64,000 nucleotides of DNA from an uncultured Pelagibacteraceae bacterium (GTDB lineage: Bacteria > Pseudomonadota > Alphaproteobacteria > Pelagibacterales > Pelagibacteraceae), in NCBI GenBank assembly GCA_902539035.1, contig CACBHL010000001.1, positions 30,144 through 94,143 of the forward strand. The letters run 5' to 3'. The translations under genes and the position numbers were made by a program. This document shows positions 38,532 to 44,079 of the stretch, one piece after another. Below the pieces are notes generated by a model. That model was not told where the DNA came from, searched no databases, and saw only the letters and a list, made by a program, of their open reading frames with translations. Positions within the stretch are counted from its first letter, which is position 1. Every line of letters begins with the position of its first letter.

Positions 38532-38786
38532 ATGTTTTATTATGTTTATATGCTGAAAAGCATTACTCCAGGTACAAAAAAAACATACGTAGGATATTCA
38601 AATAATGTTAATTTACGTTTAAATAAGCACAATTCAAATAAGGGAGCTAAATCAACTAAAGGTTATAAATGGATTTTGATTTATAAAAAAAGATTTAAAA
38701 GCAAAGTAGATGCTATGAAATTTGAATACAAACTAAAATCAAATAAAGTTCAAAGAAAAATAATCTTAGAAAGTTATAGTAAATGA
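38532..38786 (+). CDS. Stand-alone GIY-YIG nuclease (UPF0213/Slx1-like)
   Basis: YYVYML..TYVG, RLNKHN, GAKST, E..LK. Confidence 0.88.
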   Translation: MFYYVYMLKSITPGTKKTYVGYSNNVNLRLNKHNSNKGAKSTKGYKWILIYKKRFKSKVDAMKFEYKLKSNKVQRKIILESYSK

Positions 38787-41800: not shown

Positions 41801-42549
41801 AAATTGATAAAAAAGTAAAAGAAGCTATATTTTTTAAAAAAAATACGCCTTTTAAATTTATATATTTTTTTTTTAATAAATTATTTTCTTATTTTAAATA
41901 TAATAAATCCTATTCGCAGGGCTCAATGGATTTAATTCTTCTAAATATATTTAAAAATAAAAAAAAAGGAACTTATGTTGATGTGGGTTGCCAACATCCA
42001 ATTAGAAATAATAATACATATCTTTTATTTAAACAAGGTTGGTCTGGAGTAAATATAGATTTAGATAAAATTAATATTGAACTTTTCAACTACAATAGAC
42101 CAAATGATTATAACATAAATTCTGCTGTATCAGATAAAATTGAGGAAGTTGATCTTTTTTATTATCATCAAAAATCTCCGATTAACACATTAAGCAAAGA
42201 TGTAAGTAATAAACATGATGTCAAGATTGAAAAAGTTATCAAAATTAAAACTAATACACTTACAGAAATAATTGATAATACCAAAATCAAGGAAATTGAC
42301 ATCTTGTCTATTGACGTTGAAGGTTTTGAATTAAAAGTCCTTAGTGGTTTAGATTTTTCAAAATACAAACCAAAAGTAATTATAGTAGAATTTTTGGATT
42401 TAAGTTCTACAAAATGGGAAATTCCATATAATAATTTTAATAATGTAATTAACTCAAAAATTTATCAGTTTTTAATATCGAAAAATTATAAATTTGTTAA
42501 TTGGGTTAATGGTGATTTAGTTTTTGTTTCTGAAAATTTTACAGGTTAA
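41797..42549 (+). CDS. FkbM family methyltransferase
   Basis: YSQ, YVDVG, LSIDVEGFE motifs. Confidence 0.88.
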   Translation: MKIDKKVKEAIFFKKNTPFKFIYFFFNKLFSYFKYNKSYSQGSMDLILLNIFKNKKKGTYVDVGCQHPIRNNNTYLLFKQGWSGVNIDLDKINIELFNYNRPNDYNINSAVSDKIEEVDLFYYHQKSPINTLSKDVSNKHDVKIEKVIKIKTNTLTEIIDNTKIKEIDILSIDVEGFELKVLSGLDFSKYKPKVIIVEFLDLSSTKWEIPYNNFNNVINSKIYQFLISKNYKFVNWVNGDLVFVSENFTG

Positions 42550-43502
42550 AATTTAATATTATTTAACGCATTATTTTTAAATAAATTTGCTTCTTTAATA
42601 TATCTTCTTACCATTTCTGATGATTTATGACCAGTCATAGACATTATACTTCTTTCATCCGCTCCAGAATCTGCTGCAGATGTTGCAAAGCCCGATCTTA
42701 AACTATGTCCTGAGTAATTGTTGCTTTCTATCCCGGCTAATTTTAAATATTCTTTTATAAGTAGAGCAACTGTTTGGTCAGTTAATCTATTTTTTGATAA
42801 TTTTGATCCTTTAGTAAAACGTCTAAACAATGCTCCAGAACTTATTTTTGATATTTCAATCCATTTTCGAATTGAAAATACTGGGCAATACTGTGAATTG
42901 TTAAAGTAGGGGATTCCTTTCACTGAACCTTCTCCGAATTGATCCGTTTTAGATCTCCTGAGTTTAATTTTAAGACCCTCTTCTACAAAATCGAGATCTT
43001 CATAGTCTAATGAAACTATCTCATTTCTTCTAAAACCACCTGCAAATCCAATTAATATAATTGACCTATTTCTTATTTTTTTTATTTCTTCCTTTTTTTG
43101 TTCATCAATTGCATTAATAATTTGTTTTAAACTATTGATTAATAACGGTTTTTTACCCTTTTGAATACTTCCTTTTCTTCTTTTTATACCCATTATATTT
43201 TCAATAATTGATGGGTGTTTTGTATCTAAATAGTGACCTTTAAGCTTATGTATAACGCCTATTGATACCAATCTTCTTTTTAAAGTGCTCATTTTAACTT
43301 CTTTAGTTGATAAATGAGTTAAATATAATGAAACTATTTTTGGTTCTGATGGAAGAGATTTAAAACCATTTTGTTCGCAGAATAAACTGAAGTCTTTGAA
43401 ATCTGATTTATAAGCTCTTACAGTGTTGATTGCCTTTGAGCTTTGAAGATTTAACAATGTTTCTTCTTTTAACGCTTTTATGTCAGTTATTAGATTATTC
43501 AT
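42546..43502 (-). CDS. Tyrosine recombinase, Cre-like architecture
   Basis: Catalytic set R (GGFRRNE), K (RRSKTDQ), HxxR (SGHSLR), H (TGH), Y (RRY); helical core-binding N-domain. Confidence 0.92.
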   Translation of the reverse strand: MNNLITDIKALKEETLLNLQSSKAINTVRAYKSDFKDFSLFCEQNGFKSLPSEPKIVSLYLTHLSTKEVKMSTLKRRLVSIGVIHKLKGHYLDTKHPSIIENIMGIKRRKGSIQKGKKPLLINSLKQIINAIDEQKKEEIKKIRNRSIILIGFAGGFRRNEIVSLDYEDLDFVEEGLKIKLRRSKTDQFGEGSVKGIPYFNNSQYCPVFSIRKWIEISKISSGALFRRFTKGSKLSKNRLTDQTVALLIKEYLKLAGIESNNYSGHSLRSGFATSAADSGADERSIMSMTGHKSSEMVRRYIKEANLFKNNALNNIKF

Positions 43503-43505
43503 ATT

Positions 43506-43542
43506 TATTACTATTGATAACCATTAATTATCGTTAGTAATA
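43506..43542. repeat. lox-like inverted repeat, putative recombinase binding/crossover site
   Basis: TATTACTATTGATAA-CCATTAA-TTATCGTTAGTAATA; arms match 13/15; 3 bp from the recombinase start codon. Confidence 0.75.
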
Positions 43543-43566
43543 TATCAAGAGTTTTGTTAATGTCAA
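43539..43566 (-). promoter_or_regulatory. Putative sigma70 promoter of the recombinase
   Basis: Minus strand TTGACA-N16-TATATT with extended -10 TG; the -10 overlaps the outer arm of the inverted repeat. Confidence 0.6.
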
Positions 43567-43621: not shown

Positions 43622-43810
43622 ATGAAATATAAATTAAAGATGGGCATAGACGGAGTAATAGAACCAATATATTTTCTAATCACTTCTATTGGTTTTGTAA
43701 TTTTGAGCTTTATTCAGTTCAAAAAAACAGGAAAAACGTTAGAAACGATATATCTCTCTATTTTAGCTATTTTCTTTATAGTCTGCTTCATTATTTTAAA
43801 TTTTTATTGA
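43622..43810 (+). CDS. Small two-TM hypothetical membrane protein
   Basis: 62 aa, two hydrophobic helices, stop overlaps next ATG; alternative start 43640. Confidence 0.55.
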   Translation: MKYKLKMGIDGVIEPIYFLITSIGFVILSFIQFKKTGKTLETIYLSILAIFFIVCFIILNFY

Positions 43811-44079
43811 TGAAAGGTACTAAATTTCAATTAAAAGTCTGGAAATACCTTAAAACTATACCAAAAGGTACTGTAAAAACATATAAAGAAGTAGCTATTG
43901 CTATAAAAAGCCCTAAATCATCCCGTGCTGTAGCTAACGCATGTGGAAAAAACCTATATGCTCCCAAAATACCGTGTCATAGAGTAATTAGATCTGATGG
44001 AGGACTAGGTGGTTACTCCGGCAAAGGAGGAATTAAGACAAAACTACGTTTATTGAGATCTGAAAAAGTTGATATTTAG
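43810..44079 (+). CDS. O6-methylguanine-DNA methyltransferase, C-terminal domain only
   Basis: IPKG..TY, RAVANA, IPCHRV with active Cys, LGGY. Confidence 0.9.
   Translation: MKGTKFQLKVWKYLKTIPKGTVKTYKEVAIAIKSPKSSRAVANACGKNLYAPKIPCHRVIRSDGGLGGYSGKGGIKTKLRLLRSEKVDI

Follow-up and report, generated by a model that had tools for sequence, protein, structure and literature searches.

Chromosome dimer resolution by a single enzyme is already known. XerS/difSL of streptococci and lactococci and XerH/difH of Campylobacter and Helicobacter are described as single recombinases genetically linked to a terminus site (PMC2731167), and XerL/difL of the Legionellales was found by the same sequence criteria as those applied here and then confirmed genetically (PMC9765430). 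In Escherichia coli, loxP in place of dif resolves dimers, and FtsK-C is needed for this resolution (PMC2965235). Carnoy and Roten listed Pelagibacter ubique as being without dif/Xer and, in the excerpted text, reported no evidence for loxP/Cre-like substitutes (PMC2731167); a 2017 review repeated the question for dif-less proteobacteria. Here we describe a tyrosine recombinase gene and an adjacent 37-bp candidate recombination site in DNA from an uncultured Pelagibacteraceae bacterium (assembly GCA_902539035.1, contig CACBHL010000001.1, positions 30,144 to 94,143; this whole stretch of 64,000 nucleotides is hereafter referred to as the window). The enzyme and its site probably constitute the chromosome dimer resolution system of Pelagibacteraceae, the main SAR11 family (hereafter referred to as f1), and are likely to have replaced the XerC/XerD-dif system kept by its sister family (f2). 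What is new is the proposed origin by capture from a plasmid family related to Cre and TnpS, together with a core of 7 bp.

The gene/site pair and XerC/XerD-dif are mutually exclusive among the genomes compared (designated by G-numbers). The XerD model matched 132 of the 143 f1 genomes that are at least 93% complete, none with more than 89.5 bits, versus two matches of 244-322 bits in each of the seven f2 genomes; the unpublished G115 is counted in this tally. The window's enzyme itself reached 79.7 of the 329.6 bits set as the cut-off for XerC and 70.3 of the 335.15 bits set for XerD; true f2 XerC and XerD also lie just under these cut-offs, so that the gap between the scores is the actual test. 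At E≤1e-26, the XerC model had no match in 45 f1 genomes and matched 4/4 f2 genomes. The canonical dif pattern was found in 0/48 f1 and 9/13 f2 genomes, the f2 count being partly circular because the exact pattern was derived from f2 matches. A looser pattern allowing one mismatch was uninformative, with matches at control level in 42/42 genomes. The f2 dif sites are of the TTCGTATAA-TATATA-TTATGT type; canonical examples were observed at the GC-skew maximum of G037 (C2:154715-154745) and at loci L239, L242 and L244. Of the 51 mapped open reading frames (ORFs) surrounding the G037 dif, 35 have their G013 positions no more than 100 kb from the site of that complete f1 genome, and three of the 10 mapped ORFs nearest the f2 dif have theirs no more than 15 kb from it. 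XerC, XerD and a canonical dif have all been retained in f2, with dif in this same region of the terminus.

A preliminary description of this DNA had proposed a single-enzyme replacement of XerCD/dif for dimer resolution. The conserved, single-copy terminus site and the lack of XerCD-dif in the f1 searches support this proposal. Three of the outcomes it had named as contrary were not encountered: the inverted repeat is conserved in orthologues, the model and pattern searches revealed no canonical XerCD/dif elsewhere in f1, and the gene, rather than being patchily distributed, is near-core (132/143 genomes, with the site in 45/45 single-contig genomes). The model searches detect no XerC/XerD pair in f1 and databases label the gene XerD; the job has thus been assumed by annotation, without the identity of the enzyme or the site.

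The coordinates of the features are given in the table. The intact tyrosine recombinase of the preliminary description was recovered as a complete ORF with both Pfam domains and all catalytic residues, and the inverted repeat reported before its start codon was found with the predicted arm lengths and pairing, 3 bp from the recombinase ATG. The absence of a second copy was also borne out in the 815-kb assembly, in which the next-best 37-mer (own reverse strand aside) has 10 mismatches.

Features of the recombinase locus (window coordinates)
Feature	Position	Strand	Remarks
Candidate recombination site, 37 bp, 15-7-15	43506..43542		13/15 arm pairs; TATTACTATTGATAA-CCATTAA-TTATCGTTAGTAATA
Gene-proximal arm	43506..43520		Inner GATAA invariant in 80/80 sites
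Asymmetric 7-bp core, TTAATGG on gene strand	43521..43527		Putative strand-exchange region
Promoter-proximal arm	43528..43542		Inner TTATC invariant; outer 4 bp overlap predicted -10 box
Tyrosine recombinase gene, 318 aa (P0001)	42546..43502	-	PF00589 + PF02899; Cre-like two-domain fold; plasmid-borne TnpS/Cre-related family
Predicted sigma-70 promoter of recombinase gene, TTGACA-16-TATATT	43539..43566	-	11/12 match; chance expectation here 2.3 sites
Switch of cumulative GC skew and gene orientation, contig C1	42545..44081		Total maximum 42545; intergenic-only maximum 44081; putative replication terminus

The inverted repeat was rejected as evidence by itself, as it does not exceed chance: the AT-rich assembly contains 57 repeats that are just as good (arms of 15 bp with 13 or more pairs and a spacer of 5-9 bp; some in overlapping registers), two of them in the window, and comparative support was therefore required. 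The comparison of upstream regions suggested in the preliminary description provided it. GATAA-N7-TTATC lies directly upstream of the gene in 80 of 82 orthologue loci from several genera, the other two running off contig ends, with arms and core length conserved. These 80 sites comprise 45 distinct 37-mers, all with a geometry of 15-7-15 (or 14-9-14). No variation was seen in the inner five arm pairs or in pair 7/31. At pair 8/30, 61 sites have A-T and 19 have T-A; all 19 also carry C-G at 9/29 and 10/28, so that the two arms have changed in concert, perhaps in a single event. The core, of fixed length, reads TTAATGG (42 sites), TTAATTG (33) or another sequence (5) on the gene strand. The site pattern was present in 45/45 single-contig f1 genomes and single-copy in 44 of them (reversed-pattern control, 0), was absent from three f1 drafts in which the gene is likewise missing, and occurred in 1/13 f2 genomes; having been built from these same genomes, it tests copy number and not presence. 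In G113 (C1:656681), a second GATAA-N7-TTATC match with the core TTTAATG lies 70 kb from the main site. The conservation and position of the site, unlike the repeat alone, are beyond chance.

In G013 (1,343,202 bp), the site is centred on 617,618, close to the peak of cumulative GC skew (616,051) and to the switch in gene orientation (615,462); parS, parB and hemE lie at 1.253-1.261 Mb, and the intergenic skew minimum at 1.244 Mb. The arc from site to parB has a median of 0.479 of the chromosome and is at least 0.448 in 43/44 single-contig genomes. The cumulative GC-skew maximum lies within 2.4 kb of the site in 6/6 genomes; for intergenic-only skew, the maxima are no more than 11 kb away. The distances from site to skew maximum were -1.0 kb in G000, -1.6 to -1.8 kb in G013, +0.9 kb in G109, +2.4 kb in G193, -2.1 kb in G061 and -1.0 kb in G076. 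As a positive control, the dif of the sister-family genome G037 was located 430 bp from its own skew maximum. The flanking genes belong to 19 families upstream (45 loci) and 19 downstream (43 loci), indicating that the position is kept while the neighbours change.

A DNA feature missed in the preliminary description suggests a second function of the site: the -10 box of the predicted promoter overlaps the outer arm, TTGAC occurs at a constant offset in 45/45 loci, and the predicted transcription start would be covered by the site. As the site covers the enzyme's own predicted promoter, the enzyme probably limits its own expression, acting as a repressor through the site. Contigs from three RNA runs cover the gene at 85% likeness, which cannot show transcription or its start, and public sequencing runs contained at most 0.24 of the gene's words. 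This overlap is the basis of an alternative in which the repeat is an autoregulatory operator only, the recombinase acting elsewhere or having another role, and the terminus position being inherited synteny. Promoters inside Tn3-family resolvase sites are indeed repressed by the enzyme (PMC7157771), the -35 element is kept in all 45 loci, and synteny is extensive in SAR11, with 62-75 mapped ORFs near the site in four genomes mapping within 100 kb of the G013 site. We nevertheless consider this alternative highly unlikely: no second site for the enzyme to act on was found in the assembly or in 44 of the 45 single-contig f1 genomes, the asymmetric core is conserved as much as the arms, the catalytic residues do not vary, the distance from the site to the switch in skew never exceeds 2.4 kb although its immediate neighbours change, and the XerC/XerD model searches yielded no other dimer-resolution candidate in the family.

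The protein has the core-binding and catalytic domains and the R-K-HxxR-H/W-Y signature of the tyrosine recombinase superfamily, with the catalytic set R158, K185, H266, R269, H292 and Y301. In an alignment of 126 relatives, H292 is near-invariant and the other five residues are invariant; all six are retained in 44/44 full-length SAR11 orthologues, which thus have H at the H/W position. The median ratio of nonsynonymous to synonymous substitution rates (dN/dS) was 0.085 over 50 orthologue pairs, and the gene is under purifying selection. It provides the sole PF00589 match in the 815-kb assembly, which is 66% complete.

The closer kin of the enzyme appear, from sequence comparisons, to be unnamed plasmid integrases and TnpS, and the enzyme is likely to have been domesticated from a plasmid resolvase family. 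Relatives at E≤1e-12 were found in 2,150 plasmid records (best identity 44%), labelled "site-specific integrases"; phage records yielded only 25 relatives, all weak, and the family is patchy in other Alphaproteobacteria (12/297 genomes at E≤1e-30). In BLASTP comparisons, identity was 34-44% over the full length for plasmid proteins, 29% over 308 aa (E 4e-38) for TnpS of Tn4651 (pWW0), the nearest characterised protein, 22% for Cre and 28% over only 155 aa for E. coli XerD. GATAA-N7-TTATC with long arms was present in five of 13 plasmid loci, including a Runella plasmid site with perfect 15-bp arms close to those of SAR11; the other plasmid loci had 6- or 8-bp cores, or no site was found. Like inner arms with cores of 6, 7 or 8 bp were observed at plasmid loci L262, L265, L266, L267, L270, L271, L272 and L273, and these recombinase/site pairs are candidates for new tools and for studies of core-length evolution.

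Phylogenetic analysis was performed on 36 rows, with 22 unnamed representatives, six SAR11 rows and one long-branch row left out; XerS, XerA and XerH were not among the rows, and the VCre and SCre rows were candidates picked from their source plasmids. The SAR11, Xer and Cre clades each had 100/100 support, and Cre and TnpS grouped together at 98/97. The SAR11 enzymes branched among plasmid proteins, adjoining Runella and Rickettsiales ones at only 84/91, and E. coli and sister-family XerC/D formed one side of a 100/100 branch excluding the SAR11 enzyme. In approximately unbiased (AU) tests, a grouping of SAR11 with Cre/Dre/VCre was rejected (p=0.031), whereas SAR11 and Xer on one side of a branch was not (p=0.33), a result that we attribute to the lack of a fixed attachment of the long Xer branch. 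The structure model, built from the 126-sequence alignment (predicted local distance difference test, pLDDT, 95; single-sequence prediction, 33), had Cre as its best structural match (template modelling score 0.81-0.83; Z 26.9, root-mean-square deviation 2.4, 291 residues), with Z values of 20.1 for XerH and 14.5 for XerD, although this comparison is of a predicted model and may favour DNA-bound Cre conformations. The description of the enzyme as "Cre-like" therefore stands for its fold, and does not hold for membership of the Cre clade. The further claim that the site differs from the XerCD dif consensus was confirmed by its symmetric arms and 7-bp core and by the canonical dif pattern count of 0/48 in f1.

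Alternatively, the enzyme could be a fast-evolving descendant of XerC or XerD, reduced to one Xer in the manner of XerS or XerH, with no plasmid capture. The AU value of 0.33, the "site-specific recombinase XerD" label of the orthologues in databases, the H rather than W at the H/W position, and a best PDB sequence match to archaeal XerA (C-terminal domain only) are consistent with such a descent, which we nonetheless regard as the least probable of the three alternatives considered. Full-length identity to plasmid integrases (34-44%) exceeds the partial identity of about 27% to XerC/D, which lie on a 100/100 branch without the SAR11 enzyme; the scores of 70-80 bits are far from the cut-offs of about 330; and the site resembles those of plasmid relatives and not dif.

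Sites resembling that of SAR11 were also found in phages. In HTVC100P (L345:234-300) and HTVC035P (L346:170-245), non-coding DNA close to one genome end and upstream of the terminase gene contains look-alike sites; HTVC100P has a tandem pair of them, with cores of 7 and 6 bp that differ from those of the host. Site mimics upstream of terminase, often with extra half-sites, were observed at viral loci L311-L341 of HTVC010P-like phages. The raw count of the site's 17-mer in viral contigs of IMG/VR was discarded as evidence, as it did not exceed the shuffled-core control (34 versus 27), so only the flanks discriminate: host-like flanks on both sides were found for seven of 22 distinct real matches and 0/23 controls, and an HTVC100P-like terminase adjoins 17/23 viral loci with a host-like flank versus 0/11 without. 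No close relative of the enzyme was found in the viral contigs, or within 3 kb of the 34 viral loci. More broadly, at least 120 contigs of viral or mobile elements (IMG/VR, L347-L466) contain TCCGATAA-N7-TTATCGGA, with 59 different cores, most commonly TTAAACG (12), TTAAATG (11) and TTAATTG (7), and the matches appear to represent a widespread family of 7-bp-core sites. HTVC010P-like phages may make use of the recombinase of their host, or titrate it.

These phage sites raise the possibility that the enzyme and site serve mainly as a terminus landing pad for phages and islands, or as a decatenation point, dimer resolution being secondary or absent. The look-alikes in HTVC100P and HTVC035P, the terminase association at host-like-flank loci and the variable flanking genes would fit this interpretation. 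We judge it very improbable, less likely again than an operator-only repeat: the site is single and intact in 44/45 single-contig genomes, in which no attL/attR pair was seen; the phage cores are often unlike those of the host (TTAATTG in seven of at least 120 contigs); pelagiphage integration is reported into tRNA genes (PMC8477408); and the alternation with XerCD-dif suggests that the two systems have one function.

For the dimer resolution role, a mechanism can be outlined from tyrosine-recombinase chemistry. An odd number of crossovers between sister chromosomes would produce a dimer with two directly repeated sites. Four enzyme monomers, one per GATAA-ended arm, would synapse these two sites as a homotetramer, and strand exchange across the 7-bp core via a Holliday junction would yield two monomer chromosomes. 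FtsK, with its gamma domain retained, would give direction and bring the sites together at the septum, a course matching that of loxP at the dif position of E. coli (PMC2965235); it was detected in 45/45 f1 genomes (gamma domain in 4/4), and together with parB in 47/47 genomes. Enzyme bound over the promoter would result in autorepression. With slightly more confidence than doubt, we favour a wider scenario in which f1 abandoned XerC/XerD-dif and, at the same terminus, domesticated a plasmid resolvase of the Cre/TnpS type along with the 7-bp-core site belonging to it; the enzyme would be self-sufficient, self-repressing through its site and borrowed by HTVC010P-like phages with mimics beside terminase, and would mark a large family of 7-bp-core pairs that screens for 8-bp spacers would miss.

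Several observations weigh against a dimer resolution system of this kind in f1. Eleven of the 143 f1 genomes (all drafts of 20-70 contigs) had no match, the assemblies G083, G116 and G200 are without gene and site, and the copies in G134, G199 and G105 are short or carry a frameshift. The related genomes are non-independent, the paired arm change possibly corresponding to one or a few events, and autoregulation alone could conserve arms that overlap a predicted promoter. The AU test did not reject the SAR11-Xer grouping, as indicated above, and a 2026 preprint (10.64898/2026.10.07.757358) states, in its accessible part, that Arctic Pelagibacter genomes share "XerC and XerD" (Prokka/eggNOG annotation). 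The terminus is inferred from skew, and total skew largely tracks gene orientation. In four of the six skew tests, the sequence examined was a 200-kb stretch with the site at its centre, and the G000 contig is 103 kb long. Skew at four-fold sites in G013 is weak and of opposite sign (after correction for the coding strand, four-fold degenerate sites there show an excess of C over G and of A over T on the putative leading strand). G013 has only 11 canonical FtsK-orienting polar sequences (KOPS), despite the conserved FtsK gamma domain; the list of skewed 8-mers was not headed by a KOPS-like one, and neither four-fold-site skew nor KOPS/8-mer scans gave an independent terminus. Finally, in G076, parB (C1:521065) lies only 0.10 of the chromosome from the site (662156), the local skew maximum notwithstanding; this arrangement is possibly a misassembly or a large rearrangement. 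In the same genome, ftsK is also only 0.10 from the site, and local gene order is as in G013.

In the window, the gene and site are flanked by glycosyl/methyltransferase, Ogt and transporter genes. The statement that mobile-element genes are lacking nearby was upheld by a family scan of eight neighbours, bar a small GIY-YIG nuclease 4 kb off. A stand-alone 90-aa Ogt DNA-binding domain protein (43807..44079) and an 84-aa GIY-YIG protein (38532..38786) are encoded near the terminus. The nearest upstream ORF (43622..43810 in the window) is directed away from the site in 42/45 or 45/45 loci, depending on the count; these ORFs, from 19 families, run against replichore bias, and some of the short ones may be spurious. 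Their outward orientation may reflect selection against read-through into the site. In genus g5 (G061:C1:718091, G071:C1:412372), the hemE match is divergent and, at a distance of about 55-59 kb from the site, is close to the terminus, unlike in G013, G109 and G193, in which hemE is beside parB.

No published description of this gene-site pair was found in the literature, most subscription journals lying outside the search. "Pelagibacter" is absent from the available text and two supplements of PMC3025954. A screen for recombinases with 8-bp spacers (PMC10250229) does not name the SAR11 pair in its excerpted text; one supplement contains no Pelagibacter, and the candidate table is perhaps elsewhere. 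Recombinase/site pairs of the type described here are likely to be orthogonal to Cre, and that screen required 8-bp spacers. The open question of the dif-less P. ubique becomes directly testable, an exact terminus marker becomes available for SAR11 genomes, the automatic "XerC/XerD" label can be corrected, and a new host-phage link is predicted. If true, the proposed origin would clearly exemplify the domestication of a recombinase from a mobile element to maintain the chromosome, a course judged contrary to the vertical record of Xer in the excerpted text of PMC8138268, and the system would be a natural counterpart of engineered dif::loxP E. coli in the ocean's most abundant bacterial family.

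The SAR11 locus shares with XerC/XerD-dif its putative job and chromosomal position, but has one enzyme rather than two, and symmetric arms with a 7-bp core rather than 11-bp arms, a 6-bp centre and an TTATGTTAAA-type XerD arm. XerS and XerH have been classed in the Xer subgroup (PMC8138268, in part). The SAR11 enzyme attained 48.7 bits with the XerS model (cut-off 267) and 77.6 of 220 bits with the XerA model; XerH (Z 20.1) and XerA both rank below Cre (26.9) in fold, and the centre of difH is 6 nt long, versus 7 in the SAR11 site. Cre/loxP, Dre/rox, VCre/VloxP and SCre/SloxP resemble the locus in having symmetric arms and an asymmetric core near the gene, and Cre resolves replicon dimers, a job like that predicted for the SAR11 enzyme. 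SloxP even has the inner arms GATAA...TTATC, but with 6 bp between them. The SAR11 enzyme is 22% identical to Cre, lies outside the 100/100 Cre/Dre/VCre clade and has H in place of W315; lox geometry is given as 13-8-13 (PMC10250229 and PMC3082901, in the parts available), versus 15-7-15, and the enzyme is the product of a chromosomal near-core gene, whereas Cre-type enzymes are encoded by phage or plasmid genes.

TnpS, in the TnpS/TnpT-rst system of Tn4651, is described as Cre-related with a site in its own promoter region, like the SAR11 enzyme. Unlike the latter, TnpS resolves cointegrates of a transposon, for which it requires a divergent TnpT and a site of 136 bp. In SAR11, the genes that diverge upstream are short and from 19 families, and no transposase family was found among the eight neighbours; conversely, no GATAA-N5-9-TTATC was found near pWW0 tnpS, which was identified by its divergent partner gene. 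The SAR11 locus has two features of single-recombinase dimer resolution systems: a single-copy, non-coding, palindromic site at the skew-defined terminus with varying flanks, and one conserved recombinase, apparently kept vertically as judged by the gene tree, with no XerC/XerD. XerL/difL likewise combines one recombinase with an AT-rich, symmetric site roughly 30 bp long at the maximum of the skew, with varying flanks, in a lineage earlier listed as dif/Xer-less and with a mobile element that mimics the site (PMC9765430, in the sections available). In the same source, the catalytic tyrosine of XerL is at 387-389, versus 301 here, and the two enzymes are set apart by length and tyrosine position only; a Coxiella plasmid match (35%) has 314 aa, too short for XerL. 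The SAR11 gene and site are adjacent, unlike those of XerL/difL, and the SAR11 pair is known from sequence alone; XerL/difL is its closest tested precedent.

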